DNA of 64,000 nt from an uncultured Comamonadaceae bacterium (GCA_963992225.1 CAXDTK010000001.1:38164-102163), one strand, 5' to 3'. Numbered from the stretch's first letter, positions 15,993 through 58,301 are shown. Notes: generated from the letters alone by a model not told the origin. Program-made: numbers and translations.

Positions 15993-16070
15993 GCATGTGT
16001 CGCTGACGGTCGTCAGCAGCATGCCCTGGCAGCCCAGGTCTTCAAGGCTGCAACGCGGTTCGCCACGTTG
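15993..16070 (+). repeat. Three-hairpin element, copy 1
   Basis: GCTGAC/GTCAGC, CATGCCC, GCAGCC-N11-GGCTGC, TTCG loop. Confidence 0.75.
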
Positions 16071-16210
16071 ACCGATCCAGTCCGCTTCGCACCGACCACC
16101 GCGGACGCGTGTCATCACGACGCGGGTGCTTTTCATGTTCAACCCTTCGGGAAGTGTCCCGCTCCCGAAAGGGCGTGGTGCTCCCGGTCTTCAACTACCA
16201 GGAGAAACCC

Positions 16211-16462
16211 ATGTCCCTTGCGTTCGCATCGGCACCTTTGAGTGCTGAACAGGCCCGCGCCGAATCCATCGGCTACCAGGCTCTGGCCTACGTCGGCAAG
16301 CGCCTGCCCCTGCAGGTGCTGTGCAGCGCGGCCGGCCACTACATCGGCACCGCCGATGTGGACGGCCCGGTCTCGCGCGAGTCGGTCAGCTACTTCCGCT
16401 CGCACCACGCCGCCGAGCACGCCCTGCAAACGGGCCGCTGGCAGCAGCGACTCAACCCGTGA
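16211..16462 (+). CDS. Conserved ICE hypothetical protein
   Basis: GGAG RBS, GC-typical codons; LQVLCSAAGHYIGT...PVSRESVSYF. Confidence 0.7.
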   Translation: MSLAFASAPLSAEQARAESIGYQALAYVGKRLPLQVLCSAAGHYIGTADVDGPVSRESVSYFRSHHAAEHALQTGRWQQRLNP

Positions 16463-16486
16463 TGTCCAACCACCAGGAGCCAAGTC

Positions 16487-16879
16487 ATGAACCGTGCCCT
16501 GCCTCAAGAGGTACTTGATCAGATTGAGCTGGAACACCAGCACTTCGCTGCCGCACCCCAAGCCTTCTTCGAGGCATGGAAGCGCGGCGTCCACATCGCC
16601 GGAGCCGAATGGTTCGGCGACGGAACCCGCGAAGGCCTGCGGCGTGCCACCACCAAGTGGGATCTGCGGCCAAAGCTGATGATGCTCAACGACGCCCTCG
16701 GCGTCCTGAGCAGCGGCCAGCGGATGTTCCTGTCCGCGATGGTGAGCTTCTACAACGCCCGTGAGGGCGGTGCGATGCTCAAGCGTTGCGGCTTCGAGGG
16801 TCTGTCCGACCTGGGCGGCCTCGACCTGGAACGGCGCAAGGTCATCGCCGACCTGACGCTGAACTACAACGGCTGGTGA
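16487..16879 (+). CDS. Conserved ICE hypothetical protein
   Basis: AGGAG RBS; FFEAWKRGVHIAG, SSGQRMFLSAMVSFYN. Confidence 0.7.
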   Translation: MNRALPQEVLDQIELEHQHFAAAPQAFFEAWKRGVHIAGAEWFGDGTREGLRRATTKWDLRPKLMMLNDALGVLSSGQRMFLSAMVSFYNAREGGAMLKRCGFEGLSDLGGLDLERRKVIADLTLNYNGW

Positions 16880-16979
16880 GCTGCTTCGGCCCGCCAACGT
16901 TCTTCCTTTTCTCCCACCCCACGAGGGACATGCGTCCCTATGCGGGGCCATGTCCCTCCTTTCTTCATAGGAGTGAATC

Positions 16980-17434
16980 ATGTCCCCTGACTTTTCCATC
17001 GGTCTGCTCGTGACCGACGACGACATCGATGCGGTCATCCTGGAAGGTTGGCCGGCCGACGTGCGCAAGCCGCGCATGGTGGTATTCGACTACGCCGGCA
17101 ACGATGTGCAAGACGAGTATGTGCTGCATGTCAGCAGCGGAACTCCGAACACCGGATTGACCGGGCGCGAGGTTTTTCCGGTCGAGTACGGCCCTAACTG
17201 CCGTTACCCATCGCCCGCTGAAGTCCTTTCGGTGCTCGATGCACGCAAGCCGGCCGAAAAACCTTCCGCGCTGAGCATCGCCCGCAACGTACACCAAAGC
17301 ATCCTTGACTTGGATGCGCGGCTTGATCGCCTGGAGCAGGCGACGACTACAACAGCCTGTACCAGCTTGCGAATGGCGGCCTGATCGACCTGTTGAAGGT
17401 GCTGGGCGACCCGTCCTCTACCGCTGCCGGCTGA
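16980..17434 (+). pseudogene. Hypothetical protein with apparent frameshift near 17340
   Basis: GGAG RBS at start; after LEQ the protein-like tail DDYNSLYQLANGGLIDLLKVLG continues in another frame to TGA 17434. Confidence 0.5.
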
Positions 17435-17514
17435 CCGGCTGCCACTTCATCCACCCGCTGGGGTTCAATCCCCAGCAGGGGATTGCCTCGGCCATCCTCT
17501 GCTGGAGAAATCCC

Positions 17515-18231
17515 ATGTCCTACTCGAACAACAATCCCTTTGTCCGCGGCTACGACGGCCTGTCCGTCCAGCGGCTGCTTGCCATCTCCTACGACGACGA
17601 CTGCCCGCTGACCTACCTGCCCCTGCATCCCTCGCAGTCGAATCTGCCGGACAGCCAGGTCGAACGGCGGGCCTGCATCTTCTCGGACGACTTCGTGCTG
17701 ATCACCGAGGACCAAGCGGTCCCCGATGAACTGCAAGCGCAATGCCGCAGCCACGGGCTCGCCCGCAACGTTGTCTATGCCGTGATGGCCGAGGAAGACG
17801 GCAAGCCGCTGCACGTGGGCGACACCTACTCCGAAGAAGCGGCGCGGGAAGTCGTGCGGCGCCTGCGCTATGAAACGGGCTACTACAGCCGGTGCTGGGA
17901 GATCAGCAGCGCGCACCTCGACGCCGACGCGCATCGCTTCCTCTCCGAGCTGGCGGACATCGCCACGCCGACGCTGTTCCTGTTCGTCGCCTTCCGCATC
18001 CCGTACAGCCCGGCCATCGGGTTGAAGCTGATCGCCACGCCCTGGACCGACGAGAACCTGCGCGCGGTCGAAGGCACCACGGCCAAGCGGCTGATGCAGG
18101 AGCACCGCAAGAAGGGCATGCCGGAATCCCTGGTGCAGGTGCTGCACCTGGCCGCGCTCGCCGACGTGCGCATGCTGGTCTTCGATGCCGATGCGCAGGT
18201 GCTGGACGGCCTGCCGATCTACGACGACTGA
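17515..18231 (+). CDS. Conserved ICE hypothetical protein
   Basis: GGAG RBS; CWEISSAHL, LHLAALADVRMLVFDADA. Confidence 0.72.
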   Translation: MSYSNNNPFVRGYDGLSVQRLLAISYDDDCPLTYLPLHPSQSNLPDSQVERRACIFSDDFVLITEDQAVPDELQAQCRSHGLARNVVYAVMAEEDGKPLHVGDTYSEEAAREVVRRLRYETGYYSRCWEISSAHLDADAHRFLSELADIATPTLFLFVAFRIPYSPAIGLKLIATPWTDENLRAVEGTTAKRLMQEHRKKGMPESLVQVLHLAALADVRMLVFDADAQVLDGLPIYDD

Positions 18232-18341
18232 CACCACCTTTCGAGCCCCCACGCGGGGCTCGTTTCATTTCTGGACGAAGCCGGTGGCGGCGCAGTGCCG
18301 ATTCCCCCACGACGCTGGCCCACACCCGACGCACGCTGCTC

Positions 18342-18416
18342 GCATGTTCGCTGGCGTTGCCGGCAAGCATGCCCAGGCAGTCGAGACCTTCGAGGCTGCG
18401 GCACGGTTCGCCGCGC
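18342..18416 (+). repeat. Three-hairpin element, copy 2
   Basis: GCTGGC/GCCGGC, CATGCCCAG, GCAGTC-N11-GGCTGC, CGG-TTCG-CCG. Confidence 0.75.
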
Positions 18417-18524
18417 TGGTTGCTTTTCCTTCCACGGGCGCATGCGCGTCCATCCACCTCACCCCCAAGGGACATGCCTCCCTTGCGGGCGGAAGTTCCT
18501 TGGATTGCCACAAGGAGCCTCCTA

Positions 18525-19322
18525 ATGGATACCCAAGCCATCCGCGCACAGATGCCGACGCTGGTTCGCGGCCACGTGCCTTCCAACGTCCGCAGCTTCA
18601 AGTTCAACATCTTCGACGGCCAGCCCAAGGTTTCGACGCTGGGCTTCCACGTTGATCCCAAGCCTTTCGAGGGCAAGGTTATCGCCACCACCGACGAGGC
18701 CATCGTCGTCAAGACGGGCCGGGCCGAGTTCGCGGTGCTCGACAAGGCGCTCGTCACCGATGTGCCCGACGAAGGCGCCAAGGTGCAGGTCGAACCGTAT
18801 GCGCGGCGCCGCTTCGACGGCATGCGCGCGGACACGCCCGAGGAGAGCACCGAGTTCACCGCCGACGGCCAGCCGTACACGGTGAAGCGGCTCATCCTGG
18901 GTTCCGCGCCGGCCAAGTTGCCGATCCCCGAGCCGCAGTGCCCCGAGCTGCAGGAGCTGATCCACCAACTGGAGCAGTTGCCCGCGCCCGATGGCTTTCG
19001 CCGCATCACGCACCTGCTGGTGGATGCCGGCGCGCGGGACTTCACGGTGGTCGATCCGAGCCCCCGCAACATCATCGCCACGCCGCCGGCCATCGGCTTC
19101 ACCGTCGCCTCAGCGAAGTTCCAGGGGCGCGTCACCGTGCTCTACGAGCGCGGCCTCGACCTCTACGCGGTGGAGCTGCACCGCAACAGCAATCTGGTCG
19201 AGCGGGTCGATGAAGTGTCGTTCGACGAGCTGGGCCAGGCCCTGGAGCGGCTGATCGACGACGGGAGCTGGCGCCTCATCCGCGTGCAGCGCCTGTCCGG
19301 CCGCAAGCTGGTCCAGCACTGA
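18525..19322 (+). CDS. Conserved ICE hypothetical protein
   Basis: AAGGAG RBS; RSFKFNIFDG, GFRRITHLLVDAGA, YERGLDLYAVEL. Confidence 0.72.
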   Translation: MDTQAIRAQMPTLVRGHVPSNVRSFKFNIFDGQPKVSTLGFHVDPKPFEGKVIATTDEAIVVKTGRAEFAVLDKALVTDVPDEGAKVQVEPYARRRFDGMRADTPEESTEFTADGQPYTVKRLILGSAPAKLPIPEPQCPELQELIHQLEQLPAPDGFRRITHLLVDAGARDFTVVDPSPRNIIATPPAIGFTVASAKFQGRVTVLYERGLDLYAVELHRNSNLVERVDEVSFDELGQALERLIDDGSWRLIRVQRLSGRKLVQH

Positions 19323-19400
19323 GCCCCTGCGTTCCTAAGCGGCTTCCCGTCCCCGCGGCGGGAAGCCTTTCCTCCCATACCTCGATTGGAGACCACTTCC

Positions 19401-19766
19401 ATGACTGTTCGATTCAAAGGCACCGAGCTTCGGCCCGTGCTTGCCGAGGCGGCGGCCAACCAGTGCCGCGTCGTCCTGGTCAAGGACCAGGGCGTGTATT
19501 TCATGGCCGAGCGCGGCGAGAGCCGGCCCGATGGGCGGCGCAAGACCATCGCCTATGCCGTGGGCTGCAACCCTGATGTCGATGTGTTCGACGACTGGTG
19601 GGAACTGGCGCGCGCCGAATTCGGCGGCGACGACTTCGGCGAGTTCTTCGACCTGCGGGAACGGGTGTTCAGCCGCATCCTGCACAGCGAGGACGACCTC
19701 GAAGTGTCGGCCACGGCCACGCACCTGTCGATGCAGCCCATGCCCGCTGCGCCGGCCGGCCACTGA
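19401..19766 (+). CDS. DUF3085 protein
   Basis: LVKDQGVYFMAERG, AYAVGCNPD, GGDDFGEF. Confidence 0.8.
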   Translation: MTVRFKGTELRPVLAEAAANQCRVVLVKDQGVYFMAERGESRPDGRRKTIAYAVGCNPDVDVFDDWWELARAEFGGDDFGEFFDLRERVFSRILHSEDDLEVSATATHLSMQPMPAAPAGH

Positions 19767-19889
19767 CCGTCCTGCTTCCCAGCCCCTCATGAAGGGGCTT
19801 CACTTTTTCCCGAGGACGCCGTCAATGCGGGGCGTCTCGGATACCGATTGCCGCTCGCGCGGGCGCGTGCCAGGCGCCACGCTTATCAC

Positions 19890-19968
19890 CATGTTCCGCT
19901 GACACCCGTCAGCAGCATGCCCAGGCAGTCTCGATCTTCAAGACTGCGATGCGGTTCCGACCGCGTTG
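19890..19968 (+). repeat. Three-hairpin element, copy 3
   Basis: GCTGAC/GTCAGC, CATGCCCAG, GCAGTC-N11-GACTGC, GCGGT-TCCG-ACCGC. Confidence 0.75.
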
Positions 19969-20124
19969 ATCACCCAGTTCGCTCCGGCATCCCAGCGCGA
20001 ACGGCCATCGGTTCTCCCGATGGTGATGCCACCCAAGCTGTTCCTTCAACCCACGCGGGGGTTCCACACCTTCCCCGCCTTGGGTCGGGTGTGTCTCCGC
20101 CTCTTTGTTCTCAGGAGATTCACC

Positions 20125-20688
20125 ATGACCACTTCCACCGAAAGGTCCTTCTTCGACCTGCACATCACCGGACTCGGGTATCTCAATCGCATCCGCGAAG
20201 TGAAGCCCAAGAAAGGCGATGCGTTCCTGGCCTGCGACATCGCGGCGCTCAACGGCCCCAGCGATGATGTGGCCTACGTGCGTTTCGACACGCGCGTCTC
20301 GGGCTCCGAAGCGCAGCACCTGGTGCGCCGCTGCATCCAAGCGGTTGATGCCGAGAAGAAGGTGATGATCGGCTTCCGCCTGGGCGACCTGTGGACCGAC
20401 ACCTTTACCTACTCCAAGGGCAAGCGTGCCGGCGAGCAGGGGGTGAGCCTCAAGGCCCGCCTGCTGTTCGTCAGTTGGATCAAGGTCGACGGCAAGCTCG
20501 TCTACAAGGCCGAGCCCAAGCCGACCGACGCCGACGACCGCGACGAACGCGACGTGCGCGCCACGGATGTCCCCGCGACGTCCGCCGAGCCGCAAGCCGC
20601 TGCGTCCGAGCCCGCCAGGCCCGCCGCTGAAGCTGCCGATGAAGCCACTGCCGATGCGCCCGCATTGGAAGTTGCCGAGTCGTTCTGA
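20125..20688 (+). CDS. DUF3577 / STY4534-family ICE protein
   Basis: FFDLHITGLGYLNRIREV, FLACDIAALNG, KARLLFVSWIKVDG. Confidence 0.8.
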   Translation: MTTSTERSFFDLHITGLGYLNRIREVKPKKGDAFLACDIAALNGPSDDVAYVRFDTRVSGSEAQHLVRRCIQAVDAEKKVMIGFRLGDLWTDTFTYSKGKRAGEQGVSLKARLLFVSWIKVDGKLVYKAEPKPTDADDRDERDVRATDVPATSAEPQAAASEPARPAAEAADEATADAPALEVAESF

Positions 20689-20808
20689 TCCGCAAGGCCC
20701 TGACTCTGAATTGAGCCCAGGGCCTTGTCTTCTCCCACTCGCGTGCGCATGCGACCGTCACCATGACAGCCGTGTGCGTGATCGCAGCTTCGTCCGCAGG
20801 AGTTCTTC

Positions 20809-21438
20809 ATGATCACCATTCCCGGCCAATTGGCCATCAAGACCATCCACGGCCGCAACGGCGACTTCAACGTCGGGCGCCTTGCGACCTCCATCGGCGA
20901 GTTCGTCGTGAAGAACGCCGAACTCGACCAGTACGCCGAAGGCAAGTACGAGGGCGATTTCGCCATCGCGGAGATTCGCCCGTCCACGTACACCGCCAAC
21001 GGTCGCATGGTCATCGAGATCCGCGCCCTCCTGGGCGGGATGACCTTGTCCAACATCGACGCCCTGAGCCGTGACGACGCCCGCCGGCTGAGTCCGCAGG
21101 AAGTCGATCCGATCGACGAGGAAGCGCAGACCGCCACGCCGACGCCGACGACCGCCCCCAAGGCGGCCGGCCGGAAGAAGGCGCGCAGCTCGCGCGACCC
21201 GCTGGTCGATACCACGCCGTTCGGCAGCGAACCGGCTGCTGCGTCTGCCGAGGCTCCGGTCCAGGCGGACGAAGACGGCGACGCGGCACTGTTCGGTGTG
21301 CTCTGGCCGCTGGGCGATGTCGTCAAGCTCGATGCCACCGTGGATCGGCGCGTGCTGCGTCAACAGCGCGACCGTCTCGGCGACCTGGGCTACGAGTTCG
21401 CTCCGCTGTCCCAGGACTGGCACCTCGCCAGGGTCTGA
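20809..21438 (+). CDS. DUF3275-family protein
   Basis: MITIPGQLAIKTIHGRNGDFNVGRLATSIGEF, VKLDATVDRRVLRQQ. Confidence 0.78.
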   Translation: MITIPGQLAIKTIHGRNGDFNVGRLATSIGEFVVKNAELDQYAEGKYEGDFAIAEIRPSTYTANGRMVIEIRALLGGMTLSNIDALSRDDARRLSPQEVDPIDEEAQTATPTPTTAPKAAGRKKARSSRDPLVDTTPFGSEPAAASAEAPVQADEDGDAALFGVLWPLGDVVKLDATVDRRVLRQQRDRLGDLGYEFAPLSQDWHLARV

Positions 21439-21540
21439 TCCCATCGCCACTTCACGCCGCGTGCCTGCGGCTTTCCACCAACCCGCCGGGGTTCCTTCCC
21501 CGGCGGGAGGACTCCGGCCCTTTCTCACAGGAGTCATTCC

Positions 21541-21936
21541 ATGGGCTGGACATTCGTTCGATTGACGCGCGATCAATTGATCCGCGAGCTGACCGCAACT
21601 GAGGAAACCGAGCGGTCGCGCAATGAGGTCATCGATCACACGCTGGTCGGCAACGTGCTGTGGACGGTGGTGCGCGTCACCGCCAAGCAGGCCGGTGTCC
21701 TGGGTCTCGCACCCGGAGAGTCGGCCACCTTGATTGGCTGCCATCTGCTGGAAAGCGAGGGCCGCGAATGGGGCTACAAGTCCCTGGTCGAGGCCGAGCA
21801 CCCGTACTACTACTCGTGCCCGCTGCGCTATCTCGACATGGCGCCGCAGCGCTGCGCCACTTGGCGCGCAAGGGTGCATGCCTTCCATCAGCAGCATCCG
21901 GCGAGCAGTGTGGCCGGCGATGCAGCCACTGAGTGA
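21541..21936 (+). CDS. Conserved ICE hypothetical protein
   Basis: AGGAG RBS; WGYKSLVEAEHPYYYSCPLRYL. Confidence 0.7.
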   Translation: MGWTFVRLTRDQLIRELTATEETERSRNEVIDHTLVGNVLWTVVRVTAKQAGVLGLAPGESATLIGCHLLESEGREWGYKSLVEAEHPYYYSCPLRYLDMAPQRCATWRARVHAFHQQHPASSVAGDAATE

Positions 21937-21943
21937 GGCGCAC

Positions 21944-22213
21944 ATGGACACCATCCTGTCGTCCATGCGGCCCGAGCTGCTTCGCTTCGTCGAAGAACAG
22001 TTGGCCAACAACGAGGTTTCCGACGACGACGAGCTGCGCGAGCACTTCATCGCCAACGGCCTGAGCGAAGAACAGGCGTGGCAGGCACTGACCTACCGCG
22101 CCCTGTACTTGCGCTACATCTTCCTCGAAGGCTTCACGCCGATCCTTAAAGGCCAGGAAGCGCTTTGCTTCAACCCGCATAGCCGAGGCTGGGAGCCGGT
22201 TCAGAACCCATAG
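21944..22213 (+). CDS. Hypothetical protein (89 aa)
   Basis: GAGG RBS, coupled to upstream gene, typical codon usage. Confidence 0.6.
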   Translation: MDTILSSMRPELLRFVEEQLANNEVSDDDELREHFIANGLSEEQAWQALTYRALYLRYIFLEGFTPILKGQEALCFNPHSRGWEPVQNP

Positions 22214-22348
22214 GCCGCTTCCCAGCGACGCGCTTCTTCATCCCTTCCATCAGGCCCTGTTCAGCAGGGCTTTTCTTCGTCCCACGCAATCCGCGCATCC
22301 GGCCTCGGCCGCTGGATGCCGATTGCTTCATTCCGCAAGGAGATCATC

Positions 22349-23176
22349 ATGCAACTCGCTTCCCGCTTCGCTTCTCGCTCCCCGGTGCTGCGCGCCGACT
22401 ATCCGCTGTCGGATGATCAGATTCGCACCGTGGCCCCGTCCATCTTCGCGGACACCCCGCACGAAAGCCGCTCCGAACGGTACAGCTACATCCCCACGGC
22501 GGCTGTGCTGACTGAACTGCGCAAGGAAGGCTTCCAGCCGTTCATGGTGTGCCAGACCCGCGTGCGGCACGAGGACCGCCGCGACTACACCAAGCACATG
22601 CTGCGCCTTCGCCACGCCAGCCAGATCAACGGCGCCGAGGCGAACGAGATCATCCTGCTCAACTCGCACGACGGCAGCAGCAGCTACCAGATGCTCGCGG
22701 GCCTGTTCAGATTCGTCTGCCACAACGGCCTGGTGTGCGGCGACACCTTCGCCGACGTGCGGGTGCCCCACAAGGGCAACGTCACCGATCACGTGATCGA
22801 AGGCGCCTACGAGGTGCTGCACGGCTTCGAGCGCGTGCAGGACTCGCGCGACGCCATGCAGGGCATCACGCTGGACAACGGCGAGGCCGAGGTCTTCGCC
22901 AAGTCGGCGCTGACCTTGAAGTACGACGATTCGGGCAAGGCCTTGCCCATCACGGAGACCCAGATCCTGCGGCCCCGTCGTTACGACGACAACCGCGCCG
23001 ACCTGTGGACTGTCTTCAACAGAGTCCAGGAGAACCTGGTCAAGGGCGGCCTGAGCGGCCGTGCTGCCAACGGGCGCCGGCAGCGCACGCGAGCCGTCCA
23101 GGGCATCGACCAGAACGTCCGGCTCAACCGGGCGCTGTGGCTGCTGGCGGACGGCCTACGCCAGCTCAAAGCCTGA
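22349..23176 (+). CDS. DUF932/DUF945 domain protein
   Basis: LSDDQIRTVAPSIFA, SERYSYIPT, EIILLNSHDGSSSYQMLAGLFRFVCHNGLV. Confidence 0.88.
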   Translation: MQLASRFASRSPVLRADYPLSDDQIRTVAPSIFADTPHESRSERYSYIPTAAVLTELRKEGFQPFMVCQTRVRHEDRRDYTKHMLRLRHASQINGAEANEIILLNSHDGSSSYQMLAGLFRFVCHNGLVCGDTFADVRVPHKGNVTDHVIEGAYEVLHGFERVQDSRDAMQGITLDNGEAEVFAKSALTLKYDDSGKALPITETQILRPRRYDDNRADLWTVFNRVQENLVKGGLSGRAANGRRQRTRAVQGIDQNVRLNRALWLLADGLRQLKA

Positions 23177-23183
23177 CCCACAA

Positions 23184-23220
23184 GCGGATCGTGCCTCACG
23201 GCATGGTCCGCTTTTTTTTT
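23184..23220 (+). terminator. Rho-independent terminator after DUF932 gene
   Basis: GCGGATCGTGCC-TCAC-GGCATGGTCCGC followed by T9. Confidence 0.8.
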
Positions 23221-23392
23221 GGCTGGTGCCGTGCTGCCAGCGCACCGCGTTCCATTTGGTTCGGTGTAACCCTAATGCGCCAATTCGCCGCTGCCTCGAA
23301 AATCGAGATTCGACTGCATACCTCCTTGGCTTTTCCTCCCTGAGCCAAGCAGTCATCTTTGCCGCCTCGGTGTCCCCGGGGCGGTTTTCTTT

Positions 23393-24478
23393 GGCTCAGT
23401 TCGCGTTGAGTGCGGATGGCCCGGGGCCGATGGCCAGTGCGAGCAGGGAAACCGCATCGACCCTGAGTCGCGCGTTGCGGTCGAGCGCCCGGAACCAGCC
23501 GAGGTAGTTCGGCAGGTAGTGCGTGGAAATGCCGTTGAAGCGCCGCAGCCAGGTCTTCAGGCGACTGTGATACGCGTTGACGTTCTGGACATGCCACGGC
23601 CCGCGGATGCGCTCGCCGGCAGACATGTTGATGGCTTGGTGCTCAATCGCCAGTTCCACGGCGGCCTGGTGAAGGTGATTGCTGCCGTCCGAGCACAGCA
23701 CAGAGTCGTCGGCCAGTGCCTGTGGCAGCACCGCCTTGAGCGCAGCCTTGCCGGTGTTGGGCAGCACGAAGTCGCTGGTTTCGCCGGAGCGGTTGCGCAT
23801 CACCAGTATGGGCACTTGTTCGGACGACACCCCGCGCTTGGCAGCTTTGCCGCCGCGCCGGCGAGGTGCCCGTTGCGTTTGTCGGGCCAGCCGTGCTGGC
23901 TGGCCCTTGTACGAGAGCAGTTGGTACGTCTCGTCAGCCTCGACAACACCGGCCATGTGCACTGCCTTGGCCTCGCGAGGGCAGGCCAGCCAGCGATGGC
24001 GCCAACGAAAGGCGGTCGTGCTGTGCACGCCGAGTCGGGTGGCCGCTTTGCGAACGCTCAGTCCTTCGTCGAGCACCTTGGCTTGGTCGAGCCACTTGTC
24101 GCGGTAGCGCAACCGCGCCAGCGGTGTGCCGGTCAGCGCATTGAAGGTGATACGGCAGTCGCGGCACTTGTATCGCTGCAACCCATTGGCAAAGCCATTG
24201 CGCACCACGTGCTCGCCGTTGCAAGCCGGGCACATCGGTCGCGCGGCCAACCGCTTCTCGATGCAGTCGGCAACTTCGTCGATGGCCTGGGCGTGTGCAA
24301 GCTCATGGAGCACCAGCTTGCGCTGGTTGGCTGTCAGCCGCCCCAGCGCATCGCGCAGCCGCTTCAATTCGTCCGCCTTCATTTGCGTCTCCCGGTGACT
24401 CTTCTGTCACCACCGACGCAGTCTCGAACTCAACAGGCTCACTGGGCGAGCCTGTCACCATTCAACGCGAACTGAGCC
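23393..24478 (-). mobile_element. IS1595-family insertion sequence
   Basis: 17-bp perfect terminal IRs GGCTCAGTTCGCGTTGA (23393-23409 / 24462-24478); 8-bp TSD TTTTCTTT (23385-23392 / 24479-24486). Confidence 0.93.
23396..24382 (-). CDS. IS1595-family transposase
   Basis: Zn ribbon CPAC...RYKCRDC, HTH, VVEADETY, LCSDG, HVQNVNAYHSRLKTWL. Confidence 0.9.
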   Translation of the reverse strand: MKADELKRLRDALGRLTANQRKLVLHELAHAQAIDEVADCIEKRLAARPMCPACNGEHVVRNGFANGLQRYKCRDCRITFNALTGTPLARLRYRDKWLDQAKVLDEGLSVRKAATRLGVHSTTAFRWRHRWLACPREAKAVHMAGVVEADETYQLLSYKGQPARLARQTQRAPRRRGGKAAKRGVSSEQVPILVMRNRSGETSDFVLPNTGKAALKAVLPQALADDSVLCSDGSNHLHQAAVELAIEHQAINMSAGERIRGPWHVQNVNAYHSRLKTWLRRFNGISTHYLPNYLGWFRALDRNARLRVDAVSLLALAIGPGPSALNAN

Positions 24479-24594
24479 TTTTCTTTTGCGGCCGTCCTTC
24501 CGGCGCCGCGGGCGATGCGCCAGCGCAAACAGGGTTGGGCGCCGGGTCGGTTTTTCGCTCACGCGGTGTACGCAGCTTGGCGCAGGCTATGACT

Positions 24595-24669
24595 CGTGTC
24601 CGTCGGCGTAGCCGACAACATGCCCAGGTAGCCCAGACCTTCAAGGCTACGGTGCGTTGCGACGCACGG
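24595..24669 (+). repeat. Three-hairpin element, copy 4
   Basis: GTCGGC/GCCGAC, CATGCCCAG, GTAGCC-N11-GGCTAC, GTGCGT-TGCG-ACGCAC. Confidence 0.75.
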
Positions 24670-24772
24670 TCTGATTCTTCACAACGACGTTCACCGCGTC
24701 TTCTTCCATCCCCCTGGGGCAGTGACTGCCCTCGCGGGTGGTGCTGTCTCCGCTCACTTCGAGGACATCACC

Positions 24773-25429
24773 ATGCCTGCACATTCTTCCCCCAAGACGC
24801 TCTATCGCATCGACGAATGCCCCGACCTGATGGCCGATGGCGTCGTCGGTGACGAGAACGGCAACCTGGTCTTCATCTCCCTCTGGGCGCGCGACACCGC
24901 CGTCCAGGAATTCCTGGCCCGTCTCACCCTGGGCCGGGACGAGCAGGGACTGGATCAGTTCCACATCATCACCGAGCAAGGCGCGAGCATCCCGGTCTTC
25001 GTCGGCAACGTCGAGAACCTGGAGAAGCGCAGCGCACGCGCCTACCGGCGCACGCTGTTCGGCTCGCTGACCAACATCTGGCTGTTCGATCGGCGCTGCG
25101 TCAAACCCGACAAGGCCAACGCCAGCGCACTGGCGCTCTTGCCTCGCGATTCCAAGTACCGGCTCGACCGGCTGTGGACGCTGGTGCGGGACACCTGCCC
25201 GCTGCCGCTTCTCGATCCCTGGCGCGACAGCGTGCTGGAACTGCTGCAGGCGAAGTCGATGCTGACGCGCCTGCCGTTCGCCCTCGGGCCTCTGGAAGGC
25301 CATCGGCTCGCCATCGACGTGCCGGCGCTGACCCAGGTGCTGGGCGGCCTGATCCGCAGCGGCGCGCTCGTCGCCGGCACGCCGGCCAGCCGCATCCCCT
25401 CGGCACGACCGCTCGAAGCGGTGGCTTGA
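24773..25429 (+). CDS. Conserved ICE hypothetical protein
   Basis: GAGG RBS; LVFISLWARDTAVQEFLARL, TCPLPLLDPWRD; precedes MTase. Confidence 0.7.
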   Translation: MPAHSSPKTLYRIDECPDLMADGVVGDENGNLVFISLWARDTAVQEFLARLTLGRDEQGLDQFHIITEQGASIPVFVGNVENLEKRSARAYRRTLFGSLTNIWLFDRRCVKPDKANASALALLPRDSKYRLDRLWTLVRDTCPLPLLDPWRDSVLELLQAKSMLTRLPFALGPLEGHRLAIDVPALTQVLGGLIRSGALVAGTPASRIPSARPLEAVA

Positions 25430-25496
25430 GGTTCCTTCACCGGACATGCACGCGCGCATGTCCGCATCCTTTCATCTTCAATGCCAGGAGATTCCC

Positions 25497-26612
25497 ATGG
25501 CCCTCATGTTCCCGCGGCTCGCCCGCAACTTCGTCAAGAACGGGTACTTCCCCACGGATGAACCCACGCTCGAAAGAGCACTCGCCGCGCTGGCGCCCGC
25601 TGCTCCCTCGGCCGGTCCGCTGTGCATCCTCGATCCCTGCGCCGGCGAAGGCGTGGCGATCGCCGAAGCCGCGCACGCCCTCGGGCGCGAACGGGTCCAG
25701 GCCTTCGCCGTCGAGTACGAGGCGGAGCGCGCACGCCACGCCCGGCAACTGGTCGATCGCTGCATCCACGGCGACCTGATGGACACGCTGATCAGCCGGC
25801 AGAGCTTTGGCCTGCTGTGGCTCAACCCGCCGTATGGCGACCTGTCCAAGGACACCAACGGCAACGTCGGCTACCAGGGCCAGGGCCGCGCGCGGCTGGA
25901 AAAGCTGTTCTACCAGAAGGCGCTGCCGCTGCTGCAGTACGGCGGCGTGCTGATCTACATCGTGCCGCACTACGTGCTCGACGCCGAACTGGTCGGATGG
26001 CTGACCCGGCACTTCGCCGAGCTGCGCATCTACCGCGCGGTGGACACGCAGTTCAGGCAGGTCGTGATCTTCGGTCGCAAGGTTCGCCAGCGCGACCAGG
26101 TGTCGGATTCGGTCAAGGCCACGCGCGCACTGCTGCTGCAGATAGGTCTCGGCGACGCCGAAGCGGAAGAGCTGCCGGTCGAATGGCCGTTCCTGCCGTA
26201 CACGGTGCCTGCCACGGCCGAGCCGGAGCACTTCTACCGCGTGACGATGGAGCCCGAGCAGTTCGCCGATGAAGTCGGCCGGCTGCAAGGACTCTGGCCG
26301 ACGCTCGACACGCACCTTGGCGCCGCGCAGCAGTCGCTGCGGCCCCCGGCGCGAGGGTTATCGCATTGGCATCTCGCCTTAGCGCTCGCCGCGGGTGCGA
26401 TTTCCGGCGTGGTGAAGTCCAAGACGGGCCGCGTGCTCGTCGTCAAGGGCGACACCCACAAGGAGAAGACCTTGCAGACGGAGTACACCGAGCGCGACGA
26501 CGGCACCGTGGCCGAGACGCGCATCCTGACCGACAAGTTCGTGCCGGTCATCCGCGCCTGGGACATGACGCCGGGCTCGTCGACGTGTGGCGAGGTGCTG
26601 ACCATCCGCTGA
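25497..26612 (+). CDS. Orphan SAM-dependent DNA methyltransferase (N6-adenine type)
   Basis: Motif I LDPCAGEG, motif IV LNPPYG; NGYFPTD N-terminus; no cognate REase adjacent. Confidence 0.85.
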   Translation: MALMFPRLARNFVKNGYFPTDEPTLERALAALAPAAPSAGPLCILDPCAGEGVAIAEAAHALGRERVQAFAVEYEAERARHARQLVDRCIHGDLMDTLISRQSFGLLWLNPPYGDLSKDTNGNVGYQGQGRARLEKLFYQKALPLLQYGGVLIYIVPHYVLDAELVGWLTRHFAELRIYRAVDTQFRQVVIFGRKVRQRDQVSDSVKATRALLLQIGLGDAEAEELPVEWPFLPYTVPATAEPEHFYRVTMEPEQFADEVGRLQGLWPTLDTHLGAAQQSLRPPARGLSHWHLALALAAGAISGVVKSKTGRVLVVKGDTHKEKTLQTEYTERDDGTVAETRILTDKFVPVIRAWDMTPGSSTCGEVLTIR

Positions 26613-26724
26613 TCGCTGTTCCCTGACGATTCGCCGTCGCTTCATCCACCAACTCATCCACCCAACGGGGCCATGTCACCCCGCCGGGTGCCGTGGCCCC
26701 TCTTTCATCCGAAGGAGAAACACC

Positions 26725-27030
26725 ATGGCACTCGCAGTTCTCAACCTGGCGTCGCAAGCACGCTTTGCCCCCGGACACCTGGTCATGACCCGCGGCATCG
26801 ATGCGCTGGTCCAGCAAGGCCGGCTCAACCCGGCACCGTATCTGTCCCGCCATCTCAGCGGCGATTGGGGCGACCTCGACGACAGCGACCGGCGTCAGAA
26901 CGACGCCGCGTTGCGCTCCGGCGAGGATCGGCTTTTCTCGTCCTACCAGGTCGCGCCTGACCTGAAGCTCTGGATCATCACCGAGTGGGATCGCAGCGTG
27001 ACCACGCTGCTGTTGCCCAGCGAATACTGA
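26725..27030 (+). CDS. Conserved plasmid/ICE small protein
   Basis: AAGGAG RBS; RHLSGDWGDL, RLFSSY, LWIITEWDRSVTTLLLPSEY. Confidence 0.75.
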   Translation: MALAVLNLASQARFAPGHLVMTRGIDALVQQGRLNPAPYLSRHLSGDWGDLDDSDRRQNDAALRSGEDRLFSSYQVAPDLKLWIITEWDRSVTTLLLPSEY

Positions 27031-27131
27031 TCTTCATCCACCGCGGCCGCGCGCCGCTCTTCTCTTCCCAACCCGGGGCATGCCATCGCCCCGCAGGGGA
27101 GGTGCATGCCTCATTCCTATGGAGCATCACC

Positions 27132-29414: not shown

Positions 29415-29428
29415 TCCCACCCACCCAC

Positions 29429-29462
29429 GCCGGCTGCCCTTCGGGGCGCCGGCTTCTTTTTT
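29429..29462 (+). terminator. Rho-independent terminator after helicase
   Basis: GCCGGC..GCCC-TTCG-GGGC-GCCGGC then T-run. Confidence 0.75.
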
Positions 29463-29577
29463 GTTCTGCGCATCGACGGCAGGCCATGAAGTCGGGCGCA
29501 TGCCAGTTCCCTTTGTTTGCTGCCCCAACGCCCTGCGGCGGCGATGGTGAGGGCTCCGTGTTCCAGGGAACTGCCCC

Positions 29578-30821: not shown

Positions 30822-30830
30822 GAGCCGGCC

Positions 30831-32673: not shown

Positions 32674-32693
32674 TGTGACGTGAAGCGCCCGCC

Positions 32694-35599: not shown

Positions 35600-35712
35600 C
35601 CGCATCGGCCGCCGCCGCGGAAAGCGGTGGCGGGCCGGTTCCGATTGATTGCGGCGCTGGAAGACCGGCCGTTTGAGCATCGAGCCATCCGCATCCCTCG
35701 GAGAACGGCTCG

Positions 35713-36120: not shown

Positions 36121-36356
36121 CGCCTTCCGCCGATCAGGTCGCCGCCTTCACGGCCAACAGCGGCTTCGCGCCCGGGGCCGTCTCCACCGTCGTGCTCGGT
36201 TTCGTCTTCGCCGTCCTGCTGCTGTGGGGCGTGTGGGCGATGCGCACCGCCTATGTCGGCTGGGCCGAGCACCACCTGACCCAACGCCAGTTCCTCGGCG
36301 TCATCGTGCGCTTCATCGCGATGTACCTGGTGCTGGGCTTTTTCCTCCTGTCCTGA
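36117..36356 (+). CDS. TIGR03758-family small membrane protein
   Basis: QVAAFTANSGF then two TMs; synteny. Confidence 0.72.
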   Translation: MTPSADQVAAFTANSGFAPGAVSTVVLGFVFAVLLLWGVWAMRTAYVGWAEHHLTQRQFLGVIVRFIAMYLVLGFFLLS

Positions 36357-36377
36357 CCCCATGAAAGGTACTTCGCC

Positions 36378-36761: not shown

Positions 36762-36773
36762 GGCCCGGCAACG

Positions 36774-40279: not shown

Positions 40280-40694
40280 ATCGGCCGCGATCCTGTGCGC
40301 GGTCGTGTTGCTGGGCGGCTGCGCCACCAGCAAAGACAAGCTGCTGCCGCACGGCGATCACACCATGCTCGATGTGTGGAACCAGGAGACGGGCGGCAGC
40401 GCCGGTGGCGGGCAAGCGGCGCGGCAACTGCTCGATGCGCGTCAGGGCCTGCGCCGGCCGCTGACCGAGGCCGACGTGCAGGCGGCGCCTGCCACCGCTG
40501 CTGCCTACACGCGCACCGCGGCCAACGAGATCTACCGCCAGTTCCACCGGCTCCCCAACCCCGATCTGGTCATGTACGTGTTCCCACACCTGGCCGGCAC
40601 CGATCCGGTGCCGGTGCCCGGCTACACCACCGTCTTTCCCCTGTATCAGAGGGTGCAGTACGCCATGCCCGGCGAACGCCTGGAGGACTACTGA
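40260..40694 (+). CDS. TIGR03751-family conjugal transfer lipoprotein
   Basis: Lipobox LGGC; RLPNPDLVMYVFPHL. Confidence 0.8.
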   Translation: MRRIWIESAAILCAVVLLGGCATSKDKLLPHGDHTMLDVWNQETGGSAGGGQAARQLLDARQGLRRPLTEADVQAAPATAAAYTRTAANEIYRQFHRLPNPDLVMYVFPHLAGTDPVPVPGYTTVFPLYQRVQYAMPGERLEDY

Positions 40695-43588
40695 TGGCCT
40701 GGACCTTGCCTTGGCCGCGCGAGGGCCTCGCATCGGTTGGCCCTGAGCCGCATGGCGAGGACGCCTGGTCGCAGCATCTGACGTCGCTGGCGACGCACGG
40801 CATTCCCGAGCCGGGAACCGCAACCGATGACCGGCCGCGCCGTCCGGCCGCCGAGGCGGACCTGCAGGCCCTCTACGGCGTGTCGCCGTCCTTCGCCGAT
40901 CTGCTCCCCTGGGTGGAGTACCTGCCCGGCTCCAAGAGCATGCTTCTGGAAGACAGTCAGTCGGTCGCGGGCTTCTTCGAGCTGGCGCCGGTGGGCACCG
41001 AAGGCCGCGAGATGGCCTGGCTGTGGCAGGCGCGCGATGCATTGGAAAACGCGCTGCAGGACTCCTTCGATGAACTCGACGAGAACCCCTGGGTCGTGCA
41101 GCTCTACGCCCAGGATGAATCGACCTGGGACAACTACCTGCGCGGCCTGTCCGACTACGTGCGGCCGCGAGCGCAGGGCAGCACCTTCACAGAGTTTTAC
41201 GTGAGGTTCTTCGCGCACCACCTTCGCGCCATCGCCAAGCCCGGGGGCCTGTTCGAGGACACGACCGTGACGCGCCTGCCGTGGCGCGGCCAGGTCCGGC
41301 GCGTGCGCATGGTGGTCTACCGGCGCGCGAATGCGGTGACAGCATCGCGGCGCGGCCAGTCCCCCGAGCAGGCGTTGACGACGATCTGCGATCGGCTCGT
41401 GGGCGGCCTCGCCAACGCTGGCGTGAAATCCCGCCGCATGGAGGCGGCCGACATCCACGACTGGCTGCTGCGCTGGTTCAACCCACACCCGACGCTGCTC
41501 GGCCCCAGCGCCGACGACCGCGAGCGCTTCTATGCGCTCACGCGCTACCCCGAGGCAGCCGAAGACGGCGAGATCGAGCTGGCCAGCGGAGACTTCGCTC
41601 AACGCCTGTTCTTCGGCCAGCCCCGCTCGGATGTGGCGAACGGCACCTGGGTGTTCGACGGCATGCCGCACCGGGTCATCGTGATGGATCGCCTGCGCAT
41701 GCCACCCGCCACAGGCCACGTCACTGGCGAGACGCGCAAGGGCGGCGATGCGGTCAATGCGCTGTTCGACCAGATGCCCGAGGACACGGTGATGTGCCTG
41801 ACGATCGTGGCAACGCCGCAGGACGTGCTCGAAGCGCACCTGAACCACCTGAGCAAGAAGTCGGTCGGCGAGACATTGGCCTCGGAGCAGACTCGCCGCG
41901 ACGTGCAGGAAGCGCGTGGGCTGATCGGCAGTGCGCACAAGCTCTACCGCGGTGCGCTGGCCTTCTACCTGCGCGGGCACGACCTGGCGCAGCTCGACAG
42001 CCGCGGCCTGCAACTGGTGAACGTCATGCTCAACGCCGGCCTACAGCCGGTGCGCGAGGAAGACGAAGTGGCGCCGCTGAACAGCTACCTGCGCTGGCTC
42101 CCGTGCGTGTTCGATCCGGCGCTGGACAAGCGCCAGTGGTATACGCAACTGATGTTCGCGCAGCATGCCGCAAACCTCGCGCCGGTATGGGGCCGCAGTC
42201 AGGGCACGGGACATCCGGGCATTACGTTCTTCAACCGCGGCGGCGGGCCGATCACCTTCGACCCGCTGAACCGGCTCGACCGGCAGATGAACGCCCACCT
42301 GTTTCTGTTCGGCCCCACTGGCTCGGGCAAGAGCGCCACGCTCAACAACATCCTGAACCAGGTGACTGCCATCTACCGGCCGCGCCTGTTCATCGTGGAG
42401 GCCGGCAACAGCTTCGGCCTGTTCGGCGACTTCGCCATGCGGTTGGGCCTCAAGGTGCATCGCGTGAAGCTCGCGCCCGGCGCCGGGGTCAGCCTCGCGC
42501 CGTTCGCGGATGCGCACCGGCTGGTCGATACGCCCAGCCAGGTGCAGACGCTGGACGCCGATGCGCTGGACGAGGACGAGGAGCCCGCGGCGCAGGCAGC
42601 GAATCGCAGCGAGGAAGCGGAAGAGCAGCGCGACGTGCTCGGCGAGCTGGAGATCACCGCGCGGTTGATGATCACCGGCGGCGAAGACAAGGAAGAAGCG
42701 CGCATGACGCGCGCCGATCGCAGCCTGATCCGGCAGTGCATCCTCGATGCGGCCCAGCGCTGCGTGACCGAGCTGCGCACCGTACTCACGCGCGACGTGC
42801 GCGACGCGCTGCGCGAGCGCGCCCGGGACTCATCGCTGCCCGAGATGCGCCGCGCGCGCCTGCTGGAGATGGCGGACGCGATGGATATGTTTTGCCAGGG
42901 CGTCGACGGCGAGATGTTCGATCGGCCCGGCACGCCCTGGCCCGAGGCCGACATCACCATCGTGGACCTCGCCACGTTCGCGCGCGAGGGCTACAACGCG
43001 CAGCTCTCGATCGCGTACATCAGTCTCATCAACACGGTGAACAACATCGCCGAGCGCGACCAGTTCCTGGGTCGGCCGATCATCAACGTGACGGACGAAG
43101 GCCACATCATCACCAAGAACCCGCTGCTCGCGCCCTACGTCGTGAAGATCACGAAGATGTGGCGCAAGCTCGGCGCTTGGTACTGGCTGGCAACGCAGAA
43201 CATCGACGACCTGCCCAAAGCGGCCGAGCCCATGCTCAACATGATCGAGTGGTGGATCTGCCTCTCGATGCCACCGGACGAGGTGGAGAAGATCGCGCGC
43301 TTCCGCGAGCTGAACCCGGCGCAGAAGGCCCTGATGCTGTCGGCCCGCAAGGAGGCGGGCAAGTTCACCGAGGGCGTCATCCTCTCCAAGAGCATGGAAG
43401 TGCTGTTCCGTGCGGTTCCGCCCAGCCTGTACCTGGCGCTGGCTCAGACCGAGCCGGAAGAGAAGGCGGAACGCTTTCAGTTGATGCAGCAGTACGGCAT
43501 CGGCGAGCTGGATGCGGCCTTCAAGATCGCCGAGAAGATCGACCGCGCTCGCGGCATCGAATCGCTGGCGCTTGATGCGCTGGCGTAA
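40694..43588 (+). CDS. Conjugative transfer ATPase (VirB4-like), PFL_4706 family
   Basis: GPTGSGKS Walker A, VTDEGH Walker B, KMWRKLGAWYWLATQN. Confidence 0.92.
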   Translation: MAWTLPWPREGLASVGPEPHGEDAWSQHLTSLATHGIPEPGTATDDRPRRPAAEADLQALYGVSPSFADLLPWVEYLPGSKSMLLEDSQSVAGFFELAPVGTEGREMAWLWQARDALENALQDSFDELDENPWVVQLYAQDESTWDNYLRGLSDYVRPRAQGSTFTEFYVRFFAHHLRAIAKPGGLFEDTTVTRLPWRGQVRRVRMVVYRRANAVTASRRGQSPEQALTTICDRLVGGLANAGVKSRRMEAADIHDWLLRWFNPHPTLLGPSADDRERFYALTRYPEAAEDGEIELASGDFAQRLFFGQPRSDVANGTWVFDGMPHRVIVMDRLRMPPATGHVTGETRKGGDAVNALFDQMPEDTVMCLTIVATPQDVLEAHLNHLSKKSVGETLASEQTRRDVQEARGLIGSAHKLYRGALAFYLRGHDLAQLDSRGLQLVNVMLNAGLQPVREEDEVAPLNSYLRWLPCVFDPALDKRQWYTQLMFAQHAANLAPVWGRSQGTGHPGITFFNRGGGPITFDPLNRLDRQMNAHLFLFGPTGSGKSATLNNILNQVTAIYRPRLFIVEAGNSFGLFGDFAMRLGLKVHRVKLAPGAGVSLAPFADAHRLVDTPSQVQTLDADALDEDEEPAAQAANRSEEAEEQRDVLGELEITARLMITGGEDKEEARMTRADRSLIRQCILDAAQRCVTELRTVLTRDVRDALRERARDSSLPEMRRARLLEMADAMDMFCQGVDGEMFDRPGTPWPEADITIVDLATFAREGYNAQLSIAYISLINTVNNIAERDQFLGRPIINVTDEGHIITKNPLLAPYVVKITKMWRKLGAWYWLATQNIDDLPKAAEPMLNMIEWWICLSMPPDEVEKIARFRELNPAQKALMLSARKEAGKFTEGVILSKSMEVLFRAVPPSLYLALAQTEPEEKAERFQLMQQYGIGELDAAFKIAEKIDRARGIESLALDALA

Positions 43589-43598
43589 GGAAAACACC

Positions 43599-44354
43599 AT
43601 GCAGGTCGCTCGCTTCATTCCATCCCGCTCAGTCGCATTGGTCTCTGTGCTGCTCATCGTTGCGCTGATCGCGGCGGCCTGGCTGGGCTTACAGCCACAA
43701 ACGCCGATCGCCGAAGACGCTTCAGCGTCGGCCGAGTTCAGCCAGGCGCCCAAGCTGGCACTCGCCGCCGCGAGCGGCCCGCCTTGGCGCTATGGTCGCG
43801 ACGATGCGCGCTTCACGGTAGTGGAGTACGCCGACCTCGAATGTCCGTTCTGCCGCGCGTACTTCCCGGCGCTGAAGCAGTGGATCGACGCGCACCCCGA
43901 GGTGAACTGGCAGTGGCACCACCTGCCGCTGGCGCCGCACGAGCCTGCGGCGACTGCCAATGCGCGCCTGGTCGAGTGCGTTGGTGAGGCCGGCGGCTCG
44001 GCCGCGTTCTGGCGGGCGGTCGAATGGGTCTATGCGCACACCCGCGGCGACGGCCAGGGCCTGCCCGAGGGCCTGGGCTATCCAGGCATCACGCCGGCCG
44101 CCCAGCAGTGCCTCGACAGTGATCGCCCTGACACGCTGATCCGCGCGCAGTCGGCGAGCGCCGCGCAGGAGGGCGTCAAGGTCACGCCCACGCTGCGGTT
44201 GCAGGATCGCCAGTCCGGCAAGACGCTGCTGCTGCATGGCCCGGTGGAAGGCGATGCGCTGCTGTCGGCCATCGACCTGCTGGCGGCCGGCGGCACCACC
44301 GACACTGCATCGAAGGAAATGCCTGCCGAGTCCCTCGGCGACATGCCCAGGTAG
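43599..44354 (+). CDS. DsbA/DsbC-like thioredoxin-fold protein
   Basis: EYADLECPFCRAY CxxC, HLPL, VTPT cis-Pro loop; N-terminal anchor. Confidence 0.85.
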   Translation: MQVARFIPSRSVALVSVLLIVALIAAAWLGLQPQTPIAEDASASAEFSQAPKLALAAASGPPWRYGRDDARFTVVEYADLECPFCRAYFPALKQWIDAHPEVNWQWHHLPLAPHEPAATANARLVECVGEAGGSAAFWRAVEWVYAHTRGDGQGLPEGLGYPGITPAAQQCLDSDRPDTLIRAQSASAAQEGVKVTPTLRLQDRQSGKTLLLHGPVEGDALLSAIDLLAAGGTTDTASKEMPAESLGDMPR

Positions 44355-44392
44355 CCCCCGATCTTCAAGGCTACGCCGCGGCCTTGGCCGCG
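44325..44392 (+). repeat. Three-hairpin element, copy 5 (overlaps dsb stop codon)
   Basis: GCCGAG/CTCGGC, CATGCCCAG, GTAGCC-N12-GGCTAC, CGCGGCC/GGCCGCG. Confidence 0.7.
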
Positions 44393-58281: not shown

Positions 58282-58301
58282 ATTTCCTGGAGAACATGCC
58301 C

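Follow-up and report, generated by a model that had tools for sequence, protein, structure and literature searches.

The window analysed here, a stretch of 64,000 nucleotides (nt) from an uncultured Comamonadaceae bacterium (GCA_963992225.1 CAXDTK010000001.1:38164-102163), is an integrative conjugative element (ICE) of the ICEclc / PFGI-1 type in which a hairpin-rich element recurs five times. This locus raises the question of what the repeated element is and what it may do for the genes that follow it. A preliminary description of the same DNA had proposed a candidate novel structured RNA, with a comparison against Rfam as a check. In the scan of the whole window with cmscan, exactly five Rfam 15 matches at the gathering thresholds were found, all of them to radC RNA (RF01754), all on the plus strand and all full-length (model positions 1-149 of 149). 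Their scores ranged from 84.9 to 118.3 bits (E-values of 2e-14 to 6e-22), two to three times the curated gathering score of 40 bits. The five copies, in positions counted from the first letter of the window, were as follows:

15984-16129, plus strand: radC copy 1, hairpin 1 from 15994 (RF01754, 116 bits)
18333-18492, plus strand: radC copy 2, hairpin 1 from 18343 (RF01754, 87.2 bits)
19880-20029, plus strand: radC copy 3, hairpin 1 from 19890 (RF01754, 118.3 bits)
24585-24739, plus strand: radC copy 4, hairpin 1 from 24595 (RF01754, 84.9 bits)
44308-44457, plus strand: radC copy 5, hairpin 1 from 44318 (RF01754, 118.2 bits)

The five elements are members of the known radC RNA family, first described by Weinberg et al. 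(2010, Genome Biol 11:R31) from 167 proteobacterial sequences and rated there 'Y' as an RNA, 'y' as cis-regulatory and '? (complex)' as a switch. Moreover, the region of copy 4 (24485-24765) is identical over all 281 nt to JCVI_SCAF_1101668523961/281-1, a metagenomic scaffold in the seed alignment of that study. The full-length match to Rfam upheld the structure and removed the novelty: the observation was confirmed, both by direct reading and by the five matches at the places given before, and the proposal of a new RNA was refuted, the family having been published in 2010. A permissive scan of the window (E ≤ 1) added nothing relevant, and the motifs named after DUF3577 and DUF3085 that the preliminary description had named gave no match, the genes of these names being themselves present. 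No further radC copies were found in the 5.7-Mb genome beyond these five.

The radC fold comprises four hairpins and a pseudoknot over about 150 nt. Hairpin 1 is a bipartite stem closed by CATG...CATG (CAUG in the RNA), and the junction CAUGCCCAGG connects it to hairpin 2; CATGCCC(A/T)GG was seen at all five places, in line with the junction CATGCCC(A/T)G reported earlier. Hairpin 2 has a 6-bp stem, found as GCAGCC/GGCTGC, GCAGTC/GGCTGC (with a G-U pair), GCAGTC/GACTGC and, twice, GTAGCC/GGCTAC, and its loop ends in CUUCAAG (general form TTC(A/G)A); both the stem variants and the constant loop end had been read correctly. The 7-bp hairpin 3 directly abuts hairpin 2 and usually has a UNCG loop, the loops being TTCG, TTCG, (T)TCCG(A) and TGCG in copies 1-4, the four copies previously credited with UNCG-type loops, and CTTG in copy 5. 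The pseudoknot consists of 4 bp between GRYC in the hairpin 2 loop and the 4 nt just 3′ of hairpin 3. Furthermore, a fourth hairpin lies about 30 nt beyond, past a conserved linker, in the cmscan alignments and minimum-free-energy folds of all five copies. Hairpins 1-3 of the earlier three-hairpin element (about 80 nt) were thereby retained, and its extent was not, as the whole element is about 150 nt long, with a pseudoknot and hairpin 4. Two stretches of unpaired nucleotides are invariant, GCCC and CUUCRAGG. In hairpins, pseudoknot and conserved junction and loop sequences, no structural difference from the radC RNA of 2010 was found, and the taxa (Beta- and Gammaproteobacteria) and the place before DNA-related genes are also the same.

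To establish the covariation across homologues, a pattern scan using one genome per species was carried out, giving 117 loci in Beta- and Gammaproteobacteria, with hosts that include Achromobacter, Thauera, Zoogloea, Pseudomonas, Stutzerimonas and Ralstonia. The scan pattern constrained hairpin 2 only, and hairpins 1 and 3 are therefore unbiased tests. A covariance model of hairpins 1-3 was built from the five window copies (copy 1 scoring 88.8 bits with it) and searched over the window and 99 loci, resulting in 152 instances, of which the best 150 were aligned, 98 of them distinct. Alignments by MAFFT of the whole 150 nt or of the 5′ flank misplaced hairpins 1 and 4, so the alignment was trimmed to hairpins 1-3; hairpin 4 was left out of the recount, and its covariation is taken from the cov_SS_cons line of the 2010 alignment (Weinberg 2010). 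Among the 98 distinct sequences, 96.6% of the pair cells in hairpins 1-3 were standard pairs and double-sided changes occurred at 18 of the 24 pairs, values matched by none of 500 shuffles. When the 3′ partners were slid by 1-3 columns as a control, pairing fell to 21-48%. The pseudoknot, already annotated as SS_cons_1 in the 2010 alignment (Weinberg 2010), was paired in 95.4% of cases, met as GGUC/GACC, GACC/GGUU and GAUC/GAUC, with two variable pairs (AU:59/GC:30 and UA:62/CG:28). The compensatory changes noted before were thus confirmed. In contrast, single-sequence folding gave z-scores from 0.17 to −3.6 on the plus strand and similar ones on the minus strand; since these are unremarkable and alike for both strands in a context of 67% G+C, folding energy is no evidence here. 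The more-than-chance evidence is comparative, not energetic.

The same alignment bears on which strand is folded. On the gene-sense strand, the non-Watson-Crick cells comprised 167 G-U/U-G against 21 A-C/C-A. The G-U pairs would be A-C mismatches on the opposite strand, and selection therefore acts on the sense strand of the downstream genes. Judged by this pair count, the folded strand is the gene-sense (non-template) strand, which favours RNA.

Regarding the genes that follow the motif, 142 of the 150 instances were followed, at a median distance of 134 nt from hairpin 3 (range 52-536), by an open reading frame (ORF) on the same strand that has a Shine-Dalgarno sequence. These ORFs fell mainly into the groups RadC (39), KfrB-like (33), DUF3577 (29), a small 83-amino-acid (aa) protein (18) and a 218-aa protein (9). 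The window copies hold the standard positions, except at the slot after the DsbA-like gene, where another ORF stands in place of radC. Copy 1 heads the 83-aa ORF at 16211-16462 (ATG at 16211, Shine-Dalgarno AGGAG) and the genes beyond it. Copy 2 heads a KfrB-domain-like gene (18525-19322; 19.2 bits, under the Pfam cut-off of 25) and then a DUF3085 gene (19386-19766, E = 3e-29). Copy 3 heads the gene of a DUF3577 / STY4534-family 'ICE replication protein' (20125-20688; DUF3577 8.6e-60, NF040584 1.2e-59) and is the counterpart of the leader position of ICEclc ORF81655. Copy 4 heads a 218-aa ORF without assigned family (24773-25429), followed by a DUF6094 methyltransferase (25446-26612) and an SNF2/ResIII helicase (26985-29414) identified with Pfam. 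Copy 5 is situated within the type IV secretion operon, as had been stated: it lies after TraC (40295-43588), between a DsbA-like ORF (43512-44354) and a 192-aa ORF without assigned family (ATG at 44548, end at 45126), ahead of TraU (45712-46662).

The 3′ end of the DsbA-like ORF overlaps copy 5, its stop codon (TAG, 44352-44354) being inside the 5′ arm of hairpin 2. This ORF extends through hairpin 1 of copy 5, as in RadC-group loci such as L027, L005 and L012, and its C-terminal tail, (D/E)MPA..(G)DMPR followed by the stop, is encoded by the radC hairpin arms. Ribosomes completing it would unfold hairpin 1 of copy 5. A coding explanation for the motif as such was discarded, as the stems change by compensatory substitutions with no reading frame kept and the DsbA-like ORF just runs into copy 5. 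A mobile repeat, either a repetitive extragenic palindrome or a miniature inverted-repeat transposable element, was also discarded, given that in many elements the copies precede the same gene families at orthologous places and that the rest of the genome has none. Moreover, the motif was found in 3 of 24 genomes of the genus (this one among them), and the 16 genomes examined from other families of the order had none; being limited to few genomes and to the copies of this element, it therefore travels with the element.

The next question is where transcripts carrying the motif would begin. A total of 65 distinct upstream sequences from four promoter-led groups were anchored on the first base of hairpin 1, and three conserved boxes were found relative to it: aAA..gGG at −66..−59, tgCcgtTT at −47..−40 and cA..CT at −11..−6. 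All three boxes are present at copies 1-4, and none at copy 5:

15927-15989, plus strand: three-box promoter of copy 1 (AAATCGG, TTCCGTTTG and the −10-like CATCCT)
18276-18338, plus strand: three-box promoter of copy 2 (AAGCCGG, GTGCCGATTCC and CACGCT), like the ICEclc PinR and P88400 motif rows
19823-19885, plus strand: three-box promoter of copy 3 (AATGCGGGG, TACCGATTG and CACGCT)
24528-24590, plus strand: three-box promoter of copy 4 (AACAGGG, GTCGGTTTTT and CAGGCT)

The middle box matches the 27-bp motif (GCCG(G/T)TT...) of the ICEclc transfer-competence promoters (Sulser et al. 2022; PMC9286271 S3 Fig), for example those of PinR (GCGCCGGTTTC...) and P88400 (GATGCCGTTTTCC...). In copies 1-4, this GCCGnTT-type box ends 40-41 nt 5′ of hairpin 1, in rough agreement with the 42-45 nt given in the preliminary description. 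The outer two boxes form a weak inverted repeat, which fits the BisC consensus from chromatin immunoprecipitation sequencing in so far as PMC12409273 describes it, the comparison being with that description only. A scan of 13000-31000 for the sigma-70 consensus found no hexamer pairs and no promoter, which fits activator-dependent promoters.

The third box has the A at position 2 and the T at position 6 of a −10 hexamer and ends 5 nt before hairpin 1; read as a −10 hexamer, it would therefore place the start on the A of CAUG. The mapped ICEclc PinR start lies 23 nt past the 3′ end of the motif (PMC9286271 S3 Fig), the 'distance to start' in that table being counted from the motif 3′ end (check: 227 − 30 = 197, against 195 tabulated). 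This spacing puts the GCCGnTT box at −43..−36, and the start of the radC promoters would therefore be about 4 nt before hairpin 1. From these two estimates we infer that transcription starts between −4 and +2, no more than about 5 nt away from where hairpin 1 begins; the earlier placement of copies 1-4 near a predicted transcript 5′ end is thus upheld by the conserved promoter geometry. Furthermore, the first ten columns of the Rfam model (augcUucccc) probably reflect conservation of DNA rather than of RNA, because they coincide with the −10 hexamer and the discriminator.

The same three-box geometry (AAnnnGG / GCCGnTT-like / −10-like) was also seen without radC and with a short leader, at 11245-11337 before the AcaB/InrR-like gene and at 35621-35712 before the gene at 35713. 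As the boxes occur without radC, the motif is an add-on to a subset of promoters and not a part of the promoter. In a second class, associated with RadC, there is no promoter and the motif overlaps the end of the DsbA-like ORF.

ICEclc itself has radC copies at P81655 and P58432, and the strings tabulated for these two promoters in S3 Fig of PMC9286271 were compared with the loci found here. The row for P81655 (segments CAT, GCCTGCTGACGTTGT.AGCGACATGCC and AGGCAACC) and the row for P58432 (segments AAT, GCCTGCCGACGTTGT..GCGACATGCC and CAGGTAGTCC) each consist of radC hairpin 1 and the junction. The P81655 strings occur as radC matches in six loci (L017, L032, L060, L072, L078 and L117), the ICEclc-like ones falling in loci of the DUF3577 group to which copy 3 belongs, and the P58432 string occurs as a radC match in L111. 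In the ICEclc-like loci, the real boxes of the P81655-type promoter are located 40-66 nt further upstream. Thus, going by these strings, two of the eight published ICEclc promoter-motif instances are radC hairpin 1 and not the GCCGnTT box. P58432 corresponds to the promoter-less class of copy 5, and the misassignment may explain its weak or non-independent promoter behaviour. Between the machine-read table and the loci, 1-2 letters differ (GTGAGC against GTCAGC), which may be a reading error.

The published measurements on ICEclc concern mostly ORF81655. Its transcript, which has a radC copy as its leader, is among the most abundant core transcripts, with a 2^7-fold induction in stationary phase, and its unit, a polycistron of 14.5 kb, is longer than any other on the element (PMC2892462); the earlier suggestion that the motif marks abundant ICE genes thereby holds for a subset of them. 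RNA-seq coverage upstream of ORF81655 is the ICEclc maximum and shows no correlation with reporter output, a mismatch taken by the authors to suggest post-transcriptional regulation (PMC9286271). Moreover, 5′ rapid amplification of cDNA ends (RACE) failed upstream of this ORF (PMC2892462; PMC9286271). If the 5′ terminus is base-paired, this might account for the abundance as well as for the failed RACE.

Downstream of the motif, the stretches between hairpin 4 and the start codon (16130-16210, 18493-18524, 20030-20124, 24740-24772 and 44458-44547) were folded by minimum free energy for the five leaders, together with consensus folds of the orthologous groups. Each stretch holds a G+C-rich hairpin and then a hairpin in which a segment of the CUCC type, about 15 nt further upstream, pairs with the Shine-Dalgarno sequence; the RadC, KfrB-like and DUF3577 leader groups showed this pairing in their consensus folds too. 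None of these folds showed pairings of the motif and of the Shine-Dalgarno hairpin that would exclude one another. In copy 3, a CCACACC loop could be a competitor of the anti-Shine-Dalgarno strand. Just before the next promoter, each radC-led unit ends in a terminator-like hairpin (18242, 19781 and 23182), the one at 18242-18262 lying just upstream of the copy 2 promoter. A general attenuator was discarded, a U-run after hairpin 4 being present, and weak, only in the copy 1 group.

Taken with the strand preference and the position before co-oriented genes, the motif is very probably a cis-acting RNA leader. Copies 1-4 would be transcribed from promoters of the type that BisDC activates in transfer-competent ICEclc cells and, as the box geometry suggests, their transcripts would have hairpin 1 at the terminus and hence a paired 5′ end. 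The motif may then act in cis as the 5′ leader of mRNAs for DNA-handling or establishment genes, namely those of the small 83-aa protein, the KfrB-like protein, DUF3577 and the methyltransferase/helicase, as well as RadC in other elements. Provided that it is an RNA leader, its most likely role, at somewhat less than an even chance, would be 5′-end protection plus factor docking, taken as one joint claim. The paired 5′ end would guard against 5′-end-dependent decay and raise transcript levels, and the invariant unpaired nucleotides and the compact pseudoknotted fold would dock a putative factor, which in turn may control translation by way of the hairpin that sequesters the Shine-Dalgarno sequence ahead of every start codon. 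Docking is proposed beyond protection because of the 150 nt of conserved architecture with invariant unpaired bases. Copy 5 might act within the mRNA of the type IV secretion operon, for instance after processing.

Several points weigh against this joint role. Copy 5 and the 39 copies of the RadC group are promoter-less, so a 5′-terminal position is not universal. Near any radC copy, the only 5′ end measured directly is that of a primer-extension product, called 'very weak', some 250 bp upstream of ORF81655 (PMC2892462); this end maps about 20 nt upstream of hairpin 1 and not at hairpin 1, and the product could be read-through. Furthermore, a simple stabiliser needs one terminal hairpin, which leaves 150 nt of conserved pseudoknotted structure unexplained. 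No binding factor is known for radC, and no functional study of the radC RNA motif or RF01754 was found in the literature.

Other explanations were weighed against the cis-acting leader. A riboswitch or ligand-sensing leader, in which a four-hairpin pseudoknotted aptamer controls the Shine-Dalgarno-sequestering hairpin, would agree with the 'switch: ? (complex)' rating of Weinberg 2010, with the invariant GCCC and CUUCRAGG and with the presence, downstream, of the Shine-Dalgarno/anti-Shine-Dalgarno hairpin and of a possible anti-anti-Shine-Dalgarno segment. However, no metabolite logic unites the genes downstream, hairpin 4 and the Shine-Dalgarno hairpin are 50-100 variable nt apart, no alternative pairing of the motif and this platform was seen, and no terminator follows hairpin 4 save the weak U-run mentioned above, all of which makes such a sensor quite unlikely. 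Processive antitermination by a put- or EAR-like RNA, giving a terminator-resistant RNA polymerase along long ICE operons, is very unlikely too. Its compact pseudoknotted fold and the copy inside the long type IV secretion operon would suit it, EAR being located inside the eps operon, and so would the length of the radC-led ORF81655 polycistron. In contrast, the radC-led units of the window are short and each is closed by one of the terminator-like hairpins, the opposite of what a need for read-through would produce, and radC resembles neither put nor EAR in sequence or structure, the Rfam scan of the window having given no match to either.

The RNA-seq maximum upstream of ORF81655 and its disproportion to the reporter output would also be expected of a stable small RNA derived from the leader and acting in trans, for example as a sponge for an RNA-binding protein, with the five copies as dosage and identical exposed motifs in the several copies of each element. 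Nevertheless, the consistent presence of a co-oriented ORF 3′ of the motif (the 142 of 150 instances), the absence of a 3′ end signal after hairpin 4 in four of the five copies and the lack of any known target or partner render it very improbable. The least probable is a single-stranded DNA (ssDNA) element, whether a Frpo-like promoter on the transferred strand serving early genes in the recipient or an ssi/G4-type three-hairpin signal for complementary-strand priming. It is suggested by the resemblance of RadC, the SSB-like DUF3577, the methyltransferase, the helicase and the KfrB-like protein to the products of plasmid leading regions and by the location of every copy on one strand, and comparative analysis cannot tell ssDNA folds from RNA folds, a point also made in Weinberg 2017. 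The promoter version, raised in the preliminary description, must fold on the template strand, where the count would become 167 A-C mismatches against 21 G-T, whereas the fold is on the non-template strand; in addition, the stems are only 4-7 bp and offer no −35/−10 hexamer pair in the sigma-70 scan of 13000-31000. Priming, in turn, gives no reason for the fixed distance between hairpin 1 and an activator-type promoter in the 65 distinct sequences, and the hairpin 3 loops are mostly UNCG, which also speaks against ssDNA. A sense-strand ssDNA signal of the ssi kind is possible at a similarly low probability, and nothing calls for one.

As regards known systems, the present analysis adds three features to the radC description of 2010: the overlap of the first 10 model columns with a −10-like hexamer, an ICEclc-type promoter motif at a fixed distance before most copies, and a promoter-less, RadC-associated class overlapping the end of the DsbA-like ORF. 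As for the ICEclc transfer-competence promoters of the BisDC regulon (PMC9286271, PMC12409273), copies 1-4 lie directly downstream of matching boxes, while the radC element itself is not a promoter. The 5′ untranslated region (UTR) of ompA is an example of a 5′-terminal stabilising stem-loop. The predicted radC transcript would share with such stabilisers a paired 5′ hairpin, few or no unpaired 5′ nt and abundant transcripts; radC differs from them in being far larger, with about 150 nt, four helices, a pseudoknot and invariant unpaired bases. The Frpo and ssi ssDNA promoters of plasmid leading regions likewise involve establishment-type genes and strand-specific hairpins, but radC is without the long −35/−10 hairpin, folds on the non-template strand and has a conventional double-stranded promoter immediately upstream. 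Finally, the Pedo-repair motif (Weinberg 2010) is also a structured candidate RNA in the 5′ UTRs of radC and mcrC operons; it is unrelated to radC RNA in sequence and structure, is restricted to Pedobacter and has no match in the window.

As a discovery the element carries no weight, since Rfam has listed the motif from 2010 on. What value remains comes from tying an orphan RNA family to a class of promoters and to a predicted transcript 5′ end, from a sense-strand assignment that narrows the mechanisms to those at the RNA level, and from the correction of the published promoter-motif table (P81655, P58432). There is also some practical value for ICEclc-type elements, which spread catabolic and resistance genes in Pseudomonas, Achromobacter and relatives. 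A more far-reaching proposal, speculative and rather unlikely as it stands, would make radC the post-transcriptional arm of the ICEclc-type transfer-competence regulon: a pseudoknotted leader running from the +1 of BisDC-type promoters, which either has a dedicated factor of its own, of element or host origin, to recognise it or acts on RNA polymerase, and by which the establishment and DNA-processing genes would have their stability, translation or read-through set. This, if true, would give a 16-year-old orphan motif a defined regulator and a testable role in conjugation.

The gene order of the ICE around the copies was as follows:

before copy 1: ParA, DUF2857, AcaB/InrR-like regulator, DUF3158, SSB and topoisomerase III
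copy 1 and the 83-aa ORF; copy 2, KfrB-like and DUF3085
copy 3, DUF3577, DUF3275 and DUF932, then an IS1595-type transposase on the opposite strand
copy 4, 218-aa ORF, DUF6094 methyltransferase and SNF2-type helicase
type IV secretion genes: coupling protein, DUF4400, TraC and DsbA-like; copy 5; 192-aa ORF, TraU and TraG_N
53079-55166: MOBH relaxase (TraI_2)

The IS1595-family transposase gene (23396-24382, minus strand) lies between the strong terminator on the DUF932 side (23182-23213) and the copy 4 promoter. A sub-threshold Rfam match to anti-hemB (23323-23392; 39.1 bits, cut-off 49.5) covers a terminator-like hairpin at 23361-23385 and is probably just that hairpin. A second transposase (DDE_Tnp_1_4, 50539-51957) is located between TraG_N and the relaxase. 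Beyond the relaxase, the region 58296-63278 carries citrate synthase, aconitase and PrpF of the methylcitrate cycle, and represents either cargo or chromosomal flank. Moreover, all the 31-mers sampled from 15500-21500 occur in runs of at least 10 organism codes and in activated-carbon and drinking-water metagenomes, most of the runs with this stretch being from people, and the element appears to have been recently and widely disseminated, human-associated samples included.

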